Source of the DNA: a virus
Lineage: Duplodnaviria > Caudoviricetes
DNA: 64,000 bases
Direction: 5' to 3' (one strand)
Virus record (IMG/VR): IMGVR_UViG_3300037721_000031
Location: 32,001-96,000 of that record
Made by a program: the position numbers and the translations under genes. A model generated the notes under the pieces. That model searched no databases. It saw nothing but the letters and a program-made list of their open reading frames with translations, and was not told where the DNA came from. This document shows positions 747 through 47,296 of the stretch, piece after piece. Every line of letters begins with the position of its first letter. Position 1 is the first letter of the stretch.

Positions 747-2879
747 TTAATACTGATCCATCGCCAGACGAGTGATGTTGTCATTAGCTATGTAGTAACC
801 TAATGTTTCAAGAATTAGATATAGAATACCAGTCATATCGAAAACGATCTTACGGATATCCATTACAATTTCTATCTCTTCAGGCATACCTTTTAGGCGT
901 AAACTTTCTTGCGGAAGTATTACAGTCTGCATCCCTAGCTTTTGATTTTTTATCATCCAACTTTCTAATCTTTGAGCTAATGCTTTATCCTTAATATTCG
1001 CTACCCACTTCTTCATTGATGTCGAAGATTTAAGGTCAACATTAACTTTGACACCGGCATACGGAGGTATTGGTGCATCTCCATACTTAGGAGCAAAAAC
1101 TTCTTGCCACATTGTGTAATGCTGATATGGTGAATCTTCCTCAGACTTAGTGTAAGATTCTGGAGACTTTATTTGGGCACTGCGGAAGTAGGTTGACTCA
1201 CCAGCTTTTACAGATCTTACTATTTCTCTTTCTGTATCTGCTACTTTTCTAAGTAACGCATACAGAGATATCTTCTTACCAGATACAACAGTATCCATGA
1301 TCTCTTTCATCATGCTTTCTGCTTTATCTGTGATAATCGAAGGTACATTTGAAGACTTAAGGTGGACTCCCTTAATCTCCATTTCATAATCCTTATAGAT
1401 ATTACCTTCTTGGCAAGAGATATATGCAAAGTAGTGCTTACCTACTTGAGTTGGAATAAATACATCAAACTTGTATTCATTCTTCATTGCAATCTGGTGT
1501 ATTCGTTTTGACTCAATACCCATATTAGCGCTCATACGAGCTAATACGTGCGTAATGGTTTCGGCTGCTAAGAATATCATTGTCGCAGCGGTAGCTGTTG
1601 TTTCTGCTGTAAAGCCAGGATTATTACCGTGCTTCCAGAATACCCAATCTTGTACTGTGAAAATAGTAGAGTCAGTATCAGAGGTAAGAGCAGCTCTGCG
1701 AATAGATTCAGGAAAGAATGCTAACGACGCAGGTACGTTATCAGTTACGAATAAGGCCTCTATCAGACTTGTGTAGTCTGTTACAGTCTGATGAATGTTC
1801 AGTACAGTGGACGCGATAAACTGTTCAATCTCTTTACCTTTTATCTTATCCATCGTCATCCCACGCATTTCTGCTGGAAAGAACTGAGTAGCTAATACAC
1901 GATATTCTTCACGATGTGTCTTGAAGACAGTTTCAGAGTCGCTACATGGTTGCCGAACTGCCATCGATAAACGAGTAATAAACGTACGGACTACTTCATC
2001 ATTAAACTTAGCTAAATGATACAGGTCGCCAGTATATGTATACGCTGAGCGCTGCTCTGGTGTTAAGCTATATACTAGATCACGTATGTGATCCATAACT
2101 TGTTCATTCTTCCAGTATAAATTAGTAGAGTAAGTAATGCATTCCATTGTTTCAGCTGCAGAAGGATGACGAATCCCCCAGTCAGACATAGCCTTACTAA
2201 GCTTAACGTAATCTGTATGGTTTATAATTGAAATGATATTATTTAAAACAATCTTAGGGTTCCAGTAATGTCTGTTACCGCAAAGAATCTTTTCATTATT
2301 AGCATTACCATAACCAGAAGTACTACGACAAGTACTAGTGAGCGTTGAATGTGCAGTCTTATTAAAAAGCGGTGTAGAATTAGATACGTGAGCGCCGGAG
2401 ATAGAATTGTTACTAATCTTCTTATTACCCTGCTCTAACTTTTTAACAAACTCTAACAGCTTGTCGCCATTCATCTTTGCAGAGAACATAGCCTTTTTAG
2501 CTTTAGAACGAGCTGCTACGTTAGCGTCAATAAAGTCTACTAGTAGAGATTTATTAACTTTAGGAGATAAGTATGTTGTAAACGTTGGAGCTATAATCTG
2601 TTCATCCTTAACGCTATCTCCAATATACTTACTCATTGTAGAGATCTTTTTCTCTCTGTCGCCGTTATCTTTACGTTCTAGGTAGTATGTTGTCGGATCT
2701 TTAAATTCAAACTTCTGGCCTGGCTTCAATTGATTTAACACATACTCACGACATTCGTCTAATGGCTTCTTAGTGGCGATATGTAGATATGTTGCCGCAT
2801 CATCCACGTAATGTCTGAAAATATCTAAATCTCTCTTATACTCATTCTTTTCCAAAACAAACGGATTAGCAGCAGTCAT
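747..2879 (-). CDS. Family B DNA polymerase, C-terminal (motif B/C) subunit, phiKZ gp50-like
   Basis: Motif B-like KKISNNSISG, motif C SDTDS and KGVHLKSS are present. No exonuclease or motif A (DxxSLYPS) is visible. Confidence 0.88.
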   Translation of the reverse strand: MTAANPFVLEKNEYKRDLDIFRHYVDDAATYLHIATKKPLDECREYVLNQLKPGQKFEFKDPTTYYLERKDNGDREKKISTMSKYIGDSVKDEQIIAPTFTTYLSPKVNKSLLVDFIDANVAARSKAKKAMFSAKMNGDKLLEFVKKLEQGNKKISNNSISGAHVSNSTPLFNKTAHSTLTSTCRSTSGYGNANNEKILCGNRHYWNPKIVLNNIISIINHTDYVKLSKAMSDWGIRHPSAAETMECITYSTNLYWKNEQVMDHIRDLVYSLTPEQRSAYTYTGDLYHLAKFNDEVVRTFITRLSMAVRQPCSDSETVFKTHREEYRVLATQFFPAEMRGMTMDKIKGKEIEQFIASTVLNIHQTVTDYTSLIEALFVTDNVPASLAFFPESIRRAALTSDTDSTIFTVQDWVFWKHGNNPGFTAETTATAATMIFLAAETITHVLARMSANMGIESKRIHQIAMKNEYKFDVFIPTQVGKHYFAYISCQEGNIYKDYEMEIKGVHLKSSNVPSIITDKAESMMKEIMDTVVSGKKISLYALLRKVADTEREIVRSVKAGESTYFRSAQIKSPESYTKSEEDSPYQHYTMWQEVFAPKYGDAPIPPYAGVKVNVDLKSSTSMKKWVANIKDKALAQRLESWMIKNQKLGMQTVILPQESLRLKGMPEEIEIVMDIRKIVFDMTGILYLILETLGYYIANDNITRLAMDQY

Positions 2880-2967
2880 GCTTGTTTCTCATGTAAATTA
2901 ATTTCTCAGCCAAATGTACAAACTACAACATAGAAAATAATGACAGCATAAAAAAAAAATAATGTCT

Positions 2968-3001
2968 TACAAATAGTGCTCCGTACGGAGCACTATTTGT
3001 A
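2968..3001. terminator. Perfect 34-bp palindrome, terminator-like
   Basis: tacaaatagtgctccgt|acggagcactatttgta, preceded on + by gacagcataaaaaaaaaa (TTATGCTGTC plus U-tract on the minus strand). Confidence 0.7.
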
Positions 3002-31839: not shown

Positions 31840-32581
31840 GATGTTGAAGTTCTTGACTCCTCATAGCTTGAAGTTGTAAATAATCGACACCGTCATGCAG
31901 ATTAAGTTCTCCGATTACTTGATCTAAAATAATCGTGACACCTTCGATTACAGTATTAGCATATATTTTAGAAGCCCCATGCACAACGCAGCTTTGTCTA
32001 ATCTCTACGTTATCTGTAATTGCTGATGTCCCAGCTAAGCGAGCTGAGCCACGTGCTCGTGAGTTCTCGTACATTTGGGCGTACTCACACACTACTGATA
32101 AATCGCAGGCTTCAGAGTTATCAGCCATAACTGCATTATTGCGTATTACGGCATCTCCATATACTCTAACATTATCAGTAAGTAATGCGTCATCACATAT
32201 ACAGGAATCACCAAAAGCATGAATGTTGCCAGAGAGTCTGGCTCGATCTCGGACAACACAACACCCGTACACCTGACAATTTCCACCTATGACAACATCG
32301 TCACTAATGACTGCATCTTCACTTATTAGTGAGTTGCCTTGGACAATAGCTCTGTCTTTGACGACTGCATCATGCTCTACTCTAGAGTTCTGTGTAACCT
32401 TGGCATCGTTAAATATCCAACAACTGCCTCTTTGGCTCAGGTTATCTTCGCACTCTATAAACCCACCAAAATCACCCAGCTTAACACCCGCTAAAGGTAT
32501 ATCTCGAAGAGCCCTGATACGATAAAGTACAGTGTCATTATCTTTCGGAGCTTCAACTAATACTAGTTCGTATTTTTTCAT
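31829..32581 (-). CDS. Left-handed beta-helix (hexapeptide repeat) protein, YdcK-like
   Basis: N-terminal LYRIRALRDI...GDFGGFIECEDNLSQ.G.CWI followed by many [VI]xxxAx hexapeptides. Confidence 0.75.
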   Translation of the reverse strand: MKKYELVLVEAPKDNDTVLYRIRALRDIPLAGVKLGDFGGFIECEDNLSQRGSCWIFNDAKVTQNSRVEHDAVVKDRAIVQGNSLISEDAVISDDVVIGGNCQVYGCCVVRDRARLSGNIHAFGDSCICDDALLTDNVRVYGDAVIRNNAVMADNSEACDLSVVCEYAQMYENSRARGSARLAGTSAITDNVEIRQSCVVHGASKIYANTVIEGVTIILDQVIGELNLHDGVDYLQLQAMRSQELQHHGK

Positions 32582-39976: not shown

Positions 39977-41095
39977 TTACGATCGATATGCCTCAACAGC
40001 CAGCTTACCGATTTTATTTAGTAGCGTAGCTGTTGTGCCAATGATTAGAGCGCTAACCACAATGCGGTCATCAATAGATGATGCTGAGAATACTGCATCA
40101 ATATCTGTACCAGACTCTGTTCGAATGTTGTTTTCAAACACTCTACCAAATACAGTCTTCATCTGATTAGCGAAAACTCCCTTATCACCGACACCGGCAG
40201 ACACATCCGATGTAATGTAGACTTGAATAGCCGCAGTATCTAAAGCTAATGGTTCGTTTTCTATTCTGTAGTTATCATCAACAGAACCAGTAAAAGCAGT
40301 CTTATTAACTGCTTCATTACGCTTTACCATGATTTCATCAGACACGTCAGTCAAAGATCTTAAACTCTGACTCATGTCTTCTTTATCACCGTGGTAGAAT
40401 ACCTCAATTCGCTCAACCACTCCACGAACTTTAGCCTGAGGAGATTGCGCTCCTAGAACTCGCAAAGTATCGAGAGTCTCTTGATCCAATAGAGAACTAC
40501 TTACGCTGACGGCATCTTCAATTAAGCATAGAATACTCTCATATTCTAACTTATCTCCTACTTTTACCAAATTATGTATCTGCTGATTAAAGTTCACTAC
40601 AACAGCACGCATCGTAGTTGTTTTGGTTGTGAGCTTACTAGCCAGTCTACGAGACACTGCAGAAGAATCTTCAAACGTGTACGTTGATTCCATTAATACT
40701 GTCTTAGCATTAACGGATGATTTCCAAATTACTTGTTTTGGATTTAGTACATCACGCTCGAAGAAACCTGTATTGTACGCAATAGTATCACCTCTACTAA
40801 ATGCCAAACCATTAGTTAAATGAGTTACGATTTCATGAGGAATTACTAATCCAGCTGCTTTGCCATAACGTCTACCTAGCTCAACTCCAACACGAGAACC
40901 GTCAGCATACTCAACAACAATTCCATCGTCATTAAGCTTAATTACTTTACCATCTTGCTTTGCCATCACATGAAACAAGTCACTAGTGCGAGCACCTAAT
41001 ACTTGTTCGTAACCTGTTCTTACCTGGGCTTGATGATAACCTTCACACGAGATACCATGACCGTGTTGAATGCTGATAAAGTTAGTTCTCTTTGG
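39977..41095 (-). CDS. Virion RNA polymerase beta-like subunit (phiKZ gp178-like), 3' exon
   Basis: Begins PKRTNFISIQHGH and contains GVGDKGVFANQMK (beta GDK motif); the in-frame MDIK start in the ORF track is intron sequence. Confidence 0.9.
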   Translation of the reverse strand, partial: PKRTNFISIQHGHGISCEGYHQAQVRTGYEQVLGARTSDLFHVMAKQDGKVIKLNDDGIVVEYADGSRVGVELGRRYGKAAGLVIPHEIVTHLTNGLAFSRGDTIAYNTGFFERDVLNPKQVIWKSSVNAKTVLMESTYTFEDSSAVSRRLASKLTTKTTTMRAVVVNFNQQIHNLVKVGDKLEYESILCLIEDAVSVSSSLLDQETLDTLRVLGAQSPQAKVRGVVERIEVFYHGDKEDMSQSLRSLTDVSDEIMVKRNEAVNKTAFTGSVDDNYRIENEPLALDTAAIQVYITSDVSAGVGDKGVFANQMKTVFGRVFENNIRTESGTDIDAVFSASSIDDRIVVSALIIGTTATLLNKIGKLAVEAYRS

Positions 41096-42494
41096 CTTTA
41101 TGTCCACTGAGTTCGTTATTTCTCAGTCGGTGTGCTATGACACCCGCATTGACTTTCATCAATGAACAGACTATATCTTCACCCTACAGATAGGGTGTTT
41201 CCTATTTCCACTCACTTGAGTGTACACCGTGATAAGCGGCTAGTCGTTGAACGTTCTTCCTAAGTTAATTAGGAGCTTCGCTGCGGATTACCCAATCCTT
41301 ATATCTTTTACCATACCCGGGTAGTTAGTCCGGCCATCAATGCATTGCTGTCATCGACTTGGTGTATAAGGCTCTTAGGGTGTCCCCGTCAGTTAAGGAA
41401 AATACCATCTGACCATTTCTGATCAGTGGGACCATATGGATAATAACCATATCGAAAGTTATCAGAAAAAACTTTACTTCCTTGAGTCTTCAGTCTGTAA
41501 TCCAAAGCAGTTGGTGATATTCCCATTGCTTTGGCACAATCTGAAGCAGAATGATAATAGCCGATGTTTCCGGTTTTCTCACATATCAGTTTAACAATTT
41601 TCTTTGCGTATCCAGAAGTATTAAATTCTAGCAAAGGGTCGTTAATCTGACACCAAGGTGTTTCATCTGAAGACCACTTAATTTGAAGTAGTCCGGGTAA
41701 AATTGACTGACTTTTCCTCGATAACCATTGAGAGACAGTAGATGGCAGAATATTTTCTTCTTCACAGAAGTCTGTTATTCTTGCATACTCTTTGACAGTA
41801 TTGTCAAAGACGTTCCTAACCAAGATACTCTTGGATGTACTGTTTTTCTTCAATTCGTGTTCGATGGAATTTGGAATGTACCACGGTTCTTCACTGTATT
41901 CTCTGTATTGTTTCTTTTCAGGGAATATACGTTTTTCACCGATTTTAACTCGATACCCAATAGCGTCTTTTGACATACTGTAATATCTTGCGCATTCGAT
42001 AATACTCGGAAAATGCATCACAATCCCAGTAACAGTATTTCTTACTGAAATTGGCACACATTTTTCAGTGAGTCCATTCTTACCAGCATGCTCTGCATTT
42101 CCTTGGTAAGTAGTCCATTCTAAATTGTCAAGGCGATCATCGCCTTTTATGCCATTTTTGTGATTTACAACAAGATCATCGTAAGAGCAATCCATGGGTT
42201 TGAATACCATGCAAAGCACTCTATGTCTACCCAACGTTGTGCGTTCACTACTATCTTTGTACAAGAAGTAGTTGTAGTACCCGTCAGGATTTCGATGATA
42301 ATGTCTGATCACATTGAGTTTCTGGTCTATAATAACACCTTCCGGCGAAATCACGTATCGTGAAAATCCAGAAATCTCATAAAACCCTTGATAACATTTC
42401 GATGCAGTTGGCTCGAATAAATTCATTTTCTACTCTGCGAAGTTATATCACATTATAGAGTTAATTTCATTCTAATTCAACTATATCCATTTTA
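41096..42494 (-). mobile_element. Group I intron (IA2-like) carrying an HNH endonuclease
   Basis: 5' exon ends in U (GAT|TAA) and the intron ends in G (taaag|CCA). Q aatccgcagc at 41280-41289, R gttcaacgacta at 41241-41252, S aagatatagtct at 41168-41179; P7.1/P7.2-like hairpins and P8 caccc/gggtg. Splicing restores DRDDPKR. Confidence 0.92.
41389..42426 (-). CDS. Intron-encoded HNH homing endonuclease (NUMOD4-like N-terminus, HNH, three NUMOD1-like repeats)
   Basis: GRHRVLC...VVNHKNGIKGDDRLDNLEWTTYQGNAEHA; C-terminal repeats such as HFPSIIECARY and YYHSASDCAKAMG. Confidence 0.9.
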   Translation of the reverse strand: MNLFEPTASKCYQGFYEISGFSRYVISPEGVIIDQKLNVIRHYHRNPDGYYNYFLYKDSSERTTLGRHRVLCMVFKPMDCSYDDLVVNHKNGIKGDDRLDNLEWTTYQGNAEHAGKNGLTEKCVPISVRNTVTGIVMHFPSIIECARYYSMSKDAIGYRVKIGEKRIFPEKKQYREYSEEPWYIPNSIEHELKKNSTSKSILVRNVFDNTVKEYARITDFCEEENILPSTVSQWLSRKSQSILPGLLQIKWSSDETPWCQINDPLLEFNTSGYAKKIVKLICEKTGNIGYYHSASDCAKAMGISPTALDYRLKTQGSKVFSDNFRYGYYPYGPTDQKWSDGIFLN

Positions 42495-45400
42495 ATCATC
42501 ACGATCTGACGCTACTGATAAGAGTGCTGCGGTAGAAAACAATGCAGTAGCTCCGGTTTTACCAATAACATATCTGTTAGATGTTCCACGTAAAGAATTA
42601 AATTGAGGATCTGCACTTGTGTATGTATTGATAGCTACATCTGAAGAATCCACTGTTGCCTCTGAAATAGTACCCATATCGTTTTTATGGTAAGCACGAT
42701 TACGTTTCACCATTGAACGACCAGTACGTCCACCAACACCTGAGAATGTTACAGCTTCAGATTCTTTCAAATTCTGAATTGGATTTATTTCAAGGTTTTG
42801 ATTTTTAGCAGAATCTTCATTGATAGCTATCCATACGGCGTACGGATTTAAATCGATGGCGGCAGTAGTCTTATTTGCTCGAGCCCCATGCATTCTAACT
42901 GATCTAACTAGTTCAGAATAAAGAATACCTGCAAAACGCTCATATCCCTTAACTCTCATAAATGCAGGGTCAAGTTCGTAAGGATGTTGATCGTCTGTCA
43001 ATAACTCACCACTACGCAGTAAGAGCTTTGTGAATTCTACTGGTTCATTCATCTGCTCTAAGAGATCCTTAGTAATTGGATCAACGAACATTTGATTTAG
43101 TAGATCCAACTCTCTCATGTACCTCACACCTAAGCCAGCATCTTCAAGTAAATTGAAGTATACATCTTTACGATTGAACTCATGTGCAGGATAGTTATAA
43201 GTACTATCTTCGTGATCTTGCCAACCAGCAAGGATCATTGTGGCTAAGACATCGTCTCTGGAGAATATCCAAGTTTCGTCTTGAAATACAATACTCCATT
43301 CATCAGCTGCTAAACTAGGTCTTTGACCAGCAGGAATGATGCGTGGGTTTACTTTCAGGATCTTAAGCAGGTTATCTAACCCAATCAAGTAACCAAGTAC
43401 AACGCCTAGAGAGATGGCCTTACCGAATACCTTTAACTCAGCGTGTTCGATTGGTGCCTTATTTAAACGCAGTCCTATGAGATCCTCTAATGATGATAAT
43501 GCATGAAGTCTATTACCATTAGGACTACCATCAACAGTATAGAGTGCACCATTTCGACCCATCACCATCAGATCACCATCTTCACTCATTCCGATTAGTG
43601 TATTACCACCTTCTTCAACATCTTTTAAACTAAGATCACCCATTATTAAGTGTCTACGGTTTATCTCAAAGTTGAGTTTCCAGTTCTTATCGTTTATACG
43701 TAATGTAAAACTACGAAAGTTCTTGGCGATCGTGGTGTATAACTTTGGAGCAGCCACGCTTGGTTGAAATGCATCTCCAGTAACAACATCTGTAATCAGA
43801 TCTTGATCACTAAGGCCGATCAGCATAATAGCATCAGTAAGCCAACGACCATAGTCGTTAACTTTCTTCTCACTACGAGCAACAAAGATCTTTCCATAGT
43901 AGCTAGTCAAGGCTACTTGATTTGGAGAAATCTTACGGATCGGAAGATCGCTCTTTTGTTTACGAGTTCTGTAGTTAACATTGTTAACACGGAAGCTGCC
44001 GTCTTCAGTTACTTTTGGAATTCTGAAACGCAGTGTCGATGTAGCTCCTTGTAATGGCTTTACTTTGACGGTGTAGCTGTTGTAAGCCATCGAGACATTT
44101 TCAACTTGTTCGACCTGATAATCTAGTACGATAATTCCAGCTTTCTGCAGGTTCATTACCATACCAGCAATATCTCGCTGCATTACTTTAGTAATGTATT
44201 TTTCATCGAATTCCATCAGTGACGATTTAAGCATGGTCTTATCGACTAAGGTGCTTTTATCAGGAATAGAAGGAGATTCTTTAATGTCGAGTAGGTCTCT
44301 AGGAATGTTAATAAACTGATCTAATGTGGTACCATCAGGAGCAGTAATACTCTTATATGTCCCAGCTAACTCTAGATACTTACGATAATCCGCAGCAGAT
44401 AATCCTCCAGAGTCAGCCAGAGCATTACATCTGGCAATGATGGAATCTTCAAGGGACTGTCCAGTAGGAATTACTGTAGCAATATCGAAAACTTCTTGAT
44501 CGTCAGTTAATTCGGTATCGTTAGAACTAACAGCAATATCTTCAAGTGTTTCTAAGTCAGCATCTACCTGTGCATCTATGTTTACGATGTCTTCTGGTGA
44601 CTGCACTTCTTGTTCGTCGTCTTCTTCAGGACTAACTACTTCGATGTCGTCATTATCCAGATTAGAAGTAAACGAATCATCAGTATTATCAGTTACACTA
44701 GTTGCTGTTTCTTGTACTTTACTTACAGCCGCAATAGTATCAGAGTTCTCTTCATCTTTACTCGGTTCATTAACAATACCGGCACGAGCCTCGAACAAAC
44801 TCATTGATAACCGAATGAACAGCTTCTGCATCCGATCAGCGGGATGACCGTGAGCGTTAAGAGTAGAATCTTTTTCTAACTCTTCTTTGGTTGCTTTACG
44901 CCAGACATTCAATTGTCCGAGATTAAGTACAAACCAGCGTCCTGACTCTCTAAATATTAGATTCACACGATCTAAGTTTTTAACAGGAATTTTAGAGATC
45001 GCTGATTCTTCTCTCTTAGTACCCAACCATTGCCATACTTGTAACAGAATGATTGATTCTGACGATGTGAATATCCGTGCTGACTTCTGATCGATAGCTC
45101 TCTCAGCCTGACGTAATTGTGTCAAGCTAGGTAACGTCTTAGGAATATCGAATTCGATGAACTGATGTCTATCAGTAGTCTCAGCTACCTCAGCTACTTT
45201 AGTAAATACAGTAGAAATTAAATTATTCCACCGGTAATACGACGTATAGTAATTACGCAGGTATTTGTATAACCTGTGTATGAAACTATAGTTATACACT
45301 AGTACAGACTGTGGATCACGAACAGCACTCTCTAAAGATTTGAAAGGTCTGAATCGTGGATTCTTAGCTCTGTGACTACGGATTACGCGGTTAACGTCTA

Positions 45401-45656
45401 TCAGTAAACGCCTTGGATTACCATCGGTGTGCTTAAGTTCTGTAACTGTGTCTATAGTAAATGGTCTAGCTGAACTCTTGATAGCATTCTCTGATTCAGT
45501 AGGTCCATCATCCAAAGGACCTGTACCTAAATAATGATAGATTGAATTGCGTGGTAAGTCTAACAATTCTAATCTAGACAGAGGAGGCTTGATTAGTTGA
45601 TCAATCTTACGAATACCGTATTTTCTATAAAAAACTGGATACTGTAGTGTGGTCAT
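42495..45656 (-). CDS. Virion RNA polymerase beta-like subunit (phiKZ gp178-like), 5' exon
   Basis: 1054 codons; GVGGRTGRSM and DMGTISEATVDSSDVAIN motifs; ends ASDRDD at the intron. Confidence 0.9.
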
Positions 45657-45670
45657 ATTTCTATTAGTAC

Positions 45671-47296
45671 TTAATCATCACCCGTAAGATTACGACATAC
45701 GAGTTCGACAGTGTGTACTCCTGTACGATTAATAAACTGTCCGTCAGTACCTACGTAGGCACGACGACTGTTGAAAAACTCTTCACATTCTTCTATAGCC
45801 TCTTGAGAGTACGCTACAGTATAGCTGGAAGTGTCGCCATCGAAGTCGGCACCCATACGGGCGAGTTTATTGACAGCAGGAATAAGAGAGTTTACAAATG
45901 CTGCTCCTTTTACAGGGAACTCATAAGCCATTGCATCATCACTCATTGGCTGCCATTGCTCATTAAGCTGCATTCGTCTTTCAGATGTAAGAGTTACTCG
46001 AAGATAAGTTCTACTAGGATAAATAGAACCAATGCCCGTAATGGGATATCGAGTAACCATTGCTGGATATGTATTAGCCTTCTTATAAACAGCAATGTAG
46101 AACAGTTCAGCTAGTGAAATTGGTCTCACATCCTTCTTACTACGAGAAGAAGGTAGTTCAGAAATATCATGCATAATCCTGAATGTATTGTCAGGACCTA
46201 GGTACAGTAATGCTATATAACGGCCGTCAATTTCTAAAGGTACGTCGCGAATACTTTCTTCCTTGAAAGAAGAAATAATTCTTTCAATACCTTCGTTTGT
46301 AGCCCATTGATTATAATAGCGACTATGTAATAGTACCTCTTCTGACTCTAGTGTTTCTTTATTTACTAGACGAGCTGGCTGGTTTACATCAGGAAAGATA
46401 GATTCCAATAACCTACGAATTTGAAATACTGTTACCGGCAATGTAGCCTTCATGAACTGATATAACCCTACAATTGTAGAGTTGACATCAGGATTACCTT
46501 TTCTACCAAGATATGGTACAGAGGTATCCATAGCAGTAATCACGTTTCTAGTACCATTGAATACTCTGCGAGATGCCCACTTTCCTAGCAACAGTTTCTT
46601 CTTACCTTCAATTAGTGAGAAGATCATGTCGTAGATAGTGTTGAAAATTATCTGCATCTGATATCTCGGAGTGTCTAGCGCATCGACCTGAGTTTTTACA
46701 GTAGACTCATTAATAGTGTTTGAAATAGATATCAGTTGACGATAAGGCTTATTAATTTCATCTTCACTAATTCTGTTGTAGTTATCTATTTCAATATCAC
46801 GTAGTCCAGCAGGTAAAACAGCTACTTTGTCTGTTAGCGCTCTATTACCATATTTCTTAATAAGTAATACAGCTTGCTCTCTGTTAATTGAACTGGTAGT
46901 ATCGAAATGAATCTTTAACCAATGCTCAATAAAAAAAGCATACCCTGTAGAGCCATCGATGGCGCTAGCTTTAACAAAGTCTCTCAGTTCTTCATCAAAG
47001 CGACCATATCCTTTACCGGATAAGATGTCGCCATAGAGATGTTTCATTTTGACTAATACGTTAAAAATAGCCGGATGCAAAATAGGTACTTTTATATCAA
47101 TGTATGCGAAGCGAAGGCTACGTCGTTCATCACCTACTCTTCCAAAGATAGATGTTGAAAATAGACCTTCTTCTGAAAAATCAGAAGATCCACCTTCAAA
47201 GATATCTAGCTTTGATATTTTCTTTAAACCACGTAACTTCTCAGGAGTTAGGTTTAAAAGGTCAACGTTAAACGGGACATCGGATGGTTTTGACAT
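45671..47296 (-). CDS. Virion RNA polymerase beta'-like catalytic subunit (phiKZ gp180-like)
   Basis: GADFDGD catalytic motif, RYPI, VFNGTRNVI, GLFSTSIFG and VLPAGLRD. Confidence 0.93.
   Translation of the reverse strand: MSKPSDVPFNVDLLNLTPEKLRGLKKISKLDIFEGGSSDFSEEGLFSTSIFGRVGDERRSLRFAYIDIKVPILHPAIFNVLVKMKHLYGDILSGKGYGRFDEELRDFVKASAIDGSTGYAFFIEHWLKIHFDTTSSINREQAVLLIKKYGNRALTDKVAVLPAGLRDIEIDNYNRISEDEINKPYRQLISISNTINESTVKTQVDALDTPRYQMQIIFNTIYDMIFSLIEGKKKLLLGKWASRRVFNGTRNVITAMDTSVPYLGRKGNPDVNSTIVGLYQFMKATLPVTVFQIRRLLESIFPDVNQPARLVNKETLESEEVLLHSRYYNQWATNEGIERIISSFKEESIRDVPLEIDGRYIALLYLGPDNTFRIMHDISELPSSRSKKDVRPISLAELFYIAVYKKANTYPAMVTRYPITGIGSIYPSRTYLRVTLTSERRMQLNEQWQPMSDDAMAYEFPVKGAAFVNSLIPAVNKLARMGADFDGDTSSYTVAYSQEAIEECEEFFNSRRAYVGTDGQFINRTGVHTVELVCRNLTGDD

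Follow-up and report, generated by a model that had tools for sequence, protein, structure and literature searches.

A probable mobile group I intron interrupting the virion RNA polymerase β gene in an uncultivated phiKZ-like jumbo phage, with a nuclease gene in its predicted P1 loop

RESULTS

The virion RNA polymerase β gene is interrupted within a conserved motif

We analyzed a 64,000-nt stretch of viral DNA (hereafter the window), positions 32,001 to 96,000 of IMG/VR virus record IMGVR_UViG_3300037721_000031, which is 266,566 bp long and rated 98% complete. In this window, the gene for the β subunit of a virion RNA polymerase (RNAP) is interrupted by an element that we interpret, with a probability of about 0.84, as a mobile IA-type group I intron, carried by an uncultivated phiKZ-like (chimallivirus-like) jumbo phage and belonging, at the same insertion site, to the family of the PhiPA3 gp211/gp210/gp209 element. 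Support was drawn from Rfam, Pfam, PDB, tblastn, RNAalifold, IMG/VR loci, and cultured phage genomes. All features lie on the minus strand, and the locus is organized as follows.

45656..42495, minus: exon 1 of virion RNAP β, 1,054 codons ending in ...SVASDRDD (list of open reading frames [ORFs], tblastn, phiKZ gp178 alignment)
42494..41096, minus: putative group I intron, 1,399 nt, opening with an in-frame TAA (UAA in RNA) and closing with terminal G 41096
42483..42427, minus: nuclease leader, comprising a conserved block and a hairpin
42426..41389, minus: HNH homing-endonuclease gene, 345 aa, uninterrupted, in the predicted P1 loop (Pfam, PDB, gp210 alignment)
41095..39977, minus: exon 2 of virion RNAP β, 372 codons starting CCA AAG AGA (PKRTNFISIQ)

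Exon 1 ends with GAT CGT GAT GAT, in which the final T (U at -1) is position 42495, and TAA follows directly. According to tblastn, exon 1 is 43-44% identical to the β subunits of Burkholderia phage FLC9 and Ralstonia phage RP12, and exon 2 is 59-61% identical to its counterparts in Ralstonia phages RP31 and FLC1-1B and 46.6% identical to those of phiKZ-like phages; the Pfam RNA_pol_Rpb2_6 match in exon 2 was weak. With terminal G 41096 at the 3' splice site, removal of the intron restores the exon frame, and the joined exons (DRDD/PKRTNF, the slash marking the insertion point) align without gaps with the uninterrupted phiKZ gp178, FLC9 gp40, and RP12 ORF041. The initial annotation of this DNA had proposed an intron with exactly these boundaries, the U at -1, the terminal G, and the resulting ligated sequence, inserted after the DD of virion RNAP β, and all of these points hold. 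The gene order around the locus is that of PhiPA3 gp212-gp206, and the downstream ORFs resemble gp177.1, gp177, and gp176. Since the best cultured matches are of the gp178 type and the order is that of phiKZ and PhiPA3, homology identifies the host gene as the virion RNAP β subunit gene, a phiKZ gp178 homologue.

A complete group I ribozyme core lies in the interruption

A covariance-model check of the group I assignment returned a match to Rfam Intron_gpI (RF00028) at 41452..41147 (minus) that covers the full model (1-253) with 78.8 bits, against a gathering threshold of 50, and an E value of 2.4e-18. This was the sole Rfam match within the 64-kb window, and across the 266.6-kb genome RF00028 matched nowhere else and the nuclease gene proved to be single-copy. 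The core elements that had been named beforehand (P, Q, R, S, P7.1/P7.2, and P8) could all be located by coordinates, together with the remaining helices.

41426..41409, minus: P2 hairpin CUGAUC-AGAAAU-GGUCAG (compensatory changes, columns 22-46 of the 8-sequence alignment)
41401..41147, minus: catalytic core P3-P9 (Rfam alignment, element coordinates, covariation)
41401-41396, minus: P3 5' strand
41394-41383, minus: P element
41371-41365 and 41303-41297, minus: P5a
41289-41280, minus: Q
41276-41253, minus: P6
41252-41240, minus: R
41239-41227, minus: P7.1, covarying (alignment columns 260-277)
41222-41209, minus: P7.2, whose arms vary in step among relatives
~41203-41198, minus: P3 3' strand
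41197-41180, minus: P8
41179-41167, minus: S
41164-41147, minus: P9
41144-41129, minus: P9.1, covarying (columns 367-384)
41126-41107, minus: P9.2
41106-41096, minus: 3' tail after P9.2, UGGACAUAAAG, ending in the terminal G

In a core alignment of eight introns, double changes preserve pairing in 32 of the 51 predicted pairs, and R and S hardly vary. The presence of P7.1/P7.2 between P7 and the 3' strand of P3 places the intron in subgroup IA.

P1 is a predicted long-range helix that encloses the nuclease gene

The initial annotation could confirm neither P1 nor P10 by eye. Of the two, P1 was recovered as a long-range helix whose guide includes G 41432, and P10 again yielded no convincing pairing. 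The two strands of P1 are the following.

42497..42484, minus: P1 5' strand, comprising exon G-3 A-2 U-1 and intron U1 A2, loop A3 A4, and intron 5-11 AUGGAUA
41442..41430, minus: P1 3' strand, the internal guide sequence UAUCCAU-A-UGGUC

Exon G-3 A-2 U-1 and intron U1 A2 pair with 41430-41434, and intron positions 5-11 pair with 41436-41442, giving a helix of 12 bp with one internal loop in which U-1 (42495) forms a wobble pair with G 41432. P1 is invisible near the 5' splice site because the guide is located ~1 kb (~1,050 nt) further downstream.

Immediately 5' of P2, ~1 kb into the intron, all relatives have a GUC(C) motif. Duplexes between junctions and guides were markedly more stable for cognate pairs (mean -10.2 kcal/mol) than for non-cognate pairs (-5.3 kcal/mol; permutation p = 5e-5). 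Moreover, the guide region was the best junction partner among the 1,354 20-nt windows of the element studied here, and it also ranked first in two IMG/VR relatives (L011 and L015); in the other five of the eight introns it ranked 14th to 143rd of ~1,300. Exon and guide also change together: exon GACGAU goes with guide GUCGUC (Vibrio phage C-ZP2022, L120, and L123), and GAUGAU exons go with GUCC, GUCA, or GUCU. Finally, three mini-introns that lack the ORF (L103, L110, and L116) show this helix in local form, as a simple hairpin that precedes P2. The cognate duplex test, the ranks, the exon/guide co-change, and the mini-intron hairpins together indicate that P1 is a long-range helix and that the nuclease gene is an insertion in its loop. 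A T at -1 is present in 16 of 16 distinct occupied alleles as compared to 18 of 28 empty ones (Fisher p = 0.007, uncorrected for relatedness).

Other candidates for these pairings were rejected. Guide candidates in the 68-nt leader (e.g., AGUUGA near UUGAAU) were inconsistent across relatives and often placed an A, instead of a G, opposite U-1. In the RNAalifold output, the partner of the guide GUC was a GAU/GAC close to the 3' terminus, which we treated as an artefact because the 5' exon, the true partner, had been left out of the run, although the GAAGAU of the 3' tail is similar to the 5' exon. We also dropped the proposal that the last Asp is invariably encoded by GAC in empty alleles, of which 18 of 28 use GAT.

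The nuclease gene is intact and has its own conserved leader

An intact HNH ORF had been reported at the outset, and the 345-aa frame indeed contains two Pfam domains scoring above their cut-offs, HNH_3 at residues 68-111 (26.9 bits versus 24.8) and I-TevI_DNA-bd at residues 291-314. The protein thus consists of an N-terminal I-HmuI-like nuclease domain and a C-terminal I-TevI-type helix-turn-helix. I-HmuI (PDB 1U3E; residues 18-120, E value of 1.9e-5) is its sole solved relative by sequence. Across 91% of its length, the nuclease shares 46.7% identity with PhiPA3 gp210; it is ~46% identical to its counterparts in Serratia phage 2050HW and near relatives, and 35% identical to that of Vibrio phage C-ZP2022. 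Every invariant column of the four-protein alignment is retained, and His89 aligns with the catalytic His82 of gp210. From the 47% identity to gp210 and the conserved His89, it can fairly be supposed that the enzyme could attack intron-less alleles of related phages.

The last ~54 nt of the ORF are shared with three ribozyme segments, namely the guide, P2, and the 5' strand of P3; guide and P2 are coding sequence in both the window and PhiPA3, and part of P3 is coding in the window only. Upstream of the gene, the leader contains a UUGAAU-N17-UCCUAU block and a CUCCUAU...AUAGGAG hairpin, both kept in eight of the nine ORF-bearing introns. In the window, this hairpin spans 42461-42432, and its 3' arm holds a weak ribosome-binding site just before the ATG. 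T4 intron ORFs likewise have their own leader with a hairpin covering the ribosome-binding site, and by this analogy the leader features suggest a separate, delayed, and regulated expression of the nuclease. The conserved block appears in the window as TTGAAT-17-TATAAT (42480-42452), a 10/12 promoter-like match. As a sigma-70-like promoter it was rejected, given that the region holds 7 matches versus 6.1 in shuffled sequence, and it was retained solely as a conserved leader motif. These phages transcribe with their own polymerases.

The same site is occupied by related introns in diverse phages

The best-studied relative is PhiPA3, in which a putative group I intron lies in the virion RNAP β gene directly after two conserved Asp residues, the second of which aligns with Escherichia coli RpoB D675 (Birkholz et al. 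2024, Science, PMC11620839). The earlier assignment of the window's DD to the bacterial EHDDANR region is consistent with this alignment (PMC11620839). The PhiPA3 endonuclease gp210 site-specifically nicks both the intron-less PhiPA3 allele and phiKZ gp178, is inactivated for nicking by H82R, and gives PhiPA3 an advantage over phiKZ, in agreement with the interference that had been invoked for it (PMC11620839).

The DD/xKR boundary is also occupied in Serratia phage 2050HW, Vibrio phage C-ZP2022, and IMG/VR loci L009, L011, L013, L014, and L015, the last listed together with L016 among the ORF-bearing members. Among cultured phages, the element occurs in those of Pseudomonas, Serratia, and Vibrio; in PhiPA3, 2050HW, and C-ZP2022, the nuclease ORF sits between two ORFs annotated as "beta." The site is empty in FLC9, RP12, RP31, and FLC1-1B, the nearest cultured relatives of the window phage, and 10 of 38 environmental relatives of exon 2 carry an insertion exactly after DD, a sporadic distribution. 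The IMG/VR members surfaced with a four-sequence nuclease alignment as the query; an IMG/VR search with the single nuclease protein gave no matches, nor did a megablast of the locus against phage records.

Occupants of the site occur with the nuclease gene, without it, or with two nuclease-like genes. The ORF-less mini-introns after DD measure 335 nt (L110:2663-2997), 365 nt (L116:2636-3000), and 400 nt (L103:2601-3000), and in the last of these the nuclease leader motif is still present and the ORF lost. In the two-gene occupant (L014:2400-4551, 2,152 nt), the P1 loop holds the HNH gene, and a second ORF of 245 aa, located deeper in the intron near P5, has a PD-(D/E)xK/DUF559-like motif, VIEADGSQH.

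A second group I insertion site was observed 11 nt downstream, after ...CGGGU, where removal restores RV/NF; it is occupied in two others of the 38 environmental relatives, L115 (~2185-2708) and L119 (~2360-3000), the latter with only a remnant of a helix-turn-helix ORF. The 3' end of most DD-family members is ...CUGAAGAUAUCG, reminiscent of both the 5' exon (GAUGAU) and the S element (GAAGAUAUAGUC). That of the window intron, UGGACAUAAAG, is unlike theirs and resembles those of the second-site introns (UGGACAAUAUG). At another locus of the contig of L016 (L017; IMGVR_UViG_3300033997_000478, 324 kb), two RF00028 matches lie 1.5 kb apart with a 28%-identical HNH gene, which, together with the occupied virion RNAP site, gives this phage at least three group I introns.

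A near-identical pair of loci records recent gain or loss

Two IMG/VR loci from two samples, one occupied (L088, IMGVR_UViG_3300024312_000005) and one empty (L089, IMGVR_UViG_3300024282_000001), are ~100% identical over 5.7 kb, from 1.7 kb upstream to 4 kb downstream of the site. Their sole differences are a 1,306-nt intron of this family and four synonymous changes, all within the 50 nt of exon 1 that adjoin the site. These silent changes look like a co-conversion tract left by homing. Furthermore, nuclease identities across the family (34-52%) do not follow host-gene identities (31-60%): the closest host gene, that of L013 (60% identity), comes with a nuclease just 45% identical.

None of the contigs of three DNA runs joins the window exons without the intron. 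Short contigs from soil run X2, which belongs to another study, match window positions 41075-41322 and 41788-41986 with 0-1 differences per ~190 nt; the exon-like pieces in this run are 80-90% alike, and the same intron in a diverged phage is possible, at a depth that is very low.

The gene upstream of β

The ORF at 47296..45671 (minus), directly upstream of β, contains the β' active-site motif GADFDGDT and matches phiKZ gp180 and PhiPA3 gp212. Both are labelled "beta" in public records.

DISCUSSION

The window element shares with that of PhiPA3 the virion RNAP β gene and its neighborhood, the insertion point after the second Asp of DD, a homologous ribozyme, a nuclease gene located 5' of the core, and the catalytic His. 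It differs in several respects: the β subunit of the window phage is just ~40% identical and its nearest cultured kin are the intron-less FLC9 and RP12; its nuclease ORF is 15 aa longer and ends in the P element (J3/4), past the guide, P2, and the P3 5' strand; and its 3' tail is UGGACAUAAAG, where UGAAGAUAUCG is usual in the family. Assays of activity, nuclear import, and competition were made with PhiPA3 alone. The site match, the activity of gp210, and the equivalence of His82 and His89 make both the site assignment and the functional reasoning of the initial annotation sound. It had also stressed a location in the virion rather than the non-virion RNAP gene; if this was meant as a contrast with PhiPA3, it fails, and the novelty built on it falls, since the gp210 intron itself lies in virion RNAP β at the same codon boundary.

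That remark probably alludes to phiKZ gp72, a chimallivirus HNH gene from the same broader family that lies between gp71 and gp73 (non-virion RNAP β) and which we take to be located in an intron of that RNAP β gene. The window nuclease is 24.8% identical to gp72 over 87% of the query, but gp72 is a distant paralogue at another site in the other polymerase. More remote parallels are found in I-HmuI, I-HmuII, and I-BasI of Bacillus phages SPO1, SP82, and Bastille, which also involve a group I intron in an essential polymerase gene, here that of DNA polymerase. The window HNH enzyme bears the I-HmuI fold signature (1U3E), and the enzymes of this group, like gp210, nick one strand (PMC11620839). 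Host gene, phage family, and C-terminal DNA-binding module are different. The T4 td intron is likewise an IA-type phage intron, and its enzyme I-TevI shares with the window nuclease the type of C-terminal DNA-binding domain and a leader hairpin; however, I-TevI is a GIY-YIG enzyme encoded in the P6 loop, whereas the window gene lies in the predicted P1 loop. Homing-endonuclease genes in peripheral P1 have been reported for nuclear ribosomal DNA group I introns (PMC3679873).

We propose that folding of the pre-mRNA would pair the 5' junction (GAU/UA and intron 5-11) with the guide ~1,050 nt downstream, forming P1 and looping out the nuclease gene. Guanosine-initiated self-splicing would then join ...DRDD to PKR... 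and restore a β subunit of 1,426 aa; on unspliced RNA, translation would end at the UAA that opens the intron. By analogy with gp210, the I-HmuI-like HNH enzyme would nick intron-less alleles beside the DD/xKR codons. Such a nick could lead to homing, in which the intron is copied and the flanking exon co-converted, or, upon failed recombination, to damage to the essential virion RNAP gene of a competing phage. Closure of P1 over ~1 kb of translatable RNA may work because nucleus-forming phages transcribe and splice in a ribosome-free compartment. We tentatively consider it possible, though doubtful, that the P1-loop layout serves as a switch between splicing and translation that is suited to the phage nucleus, with splicing taking place in that compartment and translation of the nuclease following at a later stage, on the excised intron after its export or on a transcript initiated at the conserved leader.

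Several points weigh against a mobile, self-splicing intron. Splicing in the window phage is a prediction, as are its cleavage specificity and any competitive benefit, and an identity of 47% to gp210 is no guarantee of an equal target or activity. No intron-less, near-identical relative of the window phage was found by megablast against phage records and DNA-run contigs, so the window copy could be immobile. The exon contributes just 3 bp (GAU/GUC) to P1 in most members, and a local hairpin, AUAUGG/CCAUAU (Rfam's first helix), competes with the P1 3' strand. Translation could also compete with folding, as the nuclease reading frame takes in the guide, P2, and the 5' strand of P3. A search for P10 in the window and all relatives gave no more than a single C/G pair for the window and nothing consistent among the relatives. 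A P10 pairing is not required for RF00028 membership, and its lack therefore does not exclude a group I intron. The sequence analysis does show the signature of a ribozyme, the exon junction, the pairing of P1, and nuclease motifs that are intact, along with an intron gained or lost recently in relatives.

The most serious alternative, which we nevertheless regard as improbable, is that the intron splices and is inherited vertically, its endonuclease being inactive, a splicing helper, or otherwise employed and no longer a homing enzyme. The missing intron-less twin would fit this explanation, as would the flat 34-52% nuclease identities, which imply that the family's copies are old, and the ORF-less L103, L110, and L116, evidence of regular loss of the gene. 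On the other hand, the window ORF is full length with all invariant HNH-motif columns and the gp210 catalytic His in place, a family member (L088/L089) displays fresh presence/absence with a co-conversion-like tract, and the PhiPA3 orthologue is active (PMC11620839). A splicing-dead relic, with β made as two polypeptides (residues 1-1054 and a piece from GTG 41107), is hardly credible: jumbo-phage RNAP subunits are often naturally split, with β and β' on separate genes (e.g., ORF 47296..45671 with ADFDGD alone), a GTG-started ORF (41107..39977) is present, and P10 was not found, but the break would land within the conserved DD/xKR active-centre motif, the GTG lies within P9.2 and the 3' tail and has no ribosome-binding site, all ribozyme elements are intact with covarying helices, U at -1 and the terminal G are found in 16 of 16 distinct occupied alleles, and the ORF-less mini-introns retain the entire ribozyme, which makes sense only if splicing is needed.

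We thus favor a mobile group I intron of the PhiPA3 family, a further example of a published kind of mobile element that is itself already known. The present analysis adds a predicted P1 that spans a long range and holds the nuclease gene in its loop, evidence of how widely the site is occupied, variants with no ORF or with two, and a signature in natural genomes that looks like homing. For the window itself, the consequence for annotation is that the two "beta" ORFs are a single gene. The P1 that encloses the nuclease gene provides a defined RNA structure usable in splicing experiments. The published case in which a homing endonuclease confers a competitive edge on a virus is that of PhiPA3, and from the window locus and the related ones it is evident that PhiPA3 is not alone in carrying this element. 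The family thereby offers natural material for asking how common intron-mediated interference is across jumbo phages.

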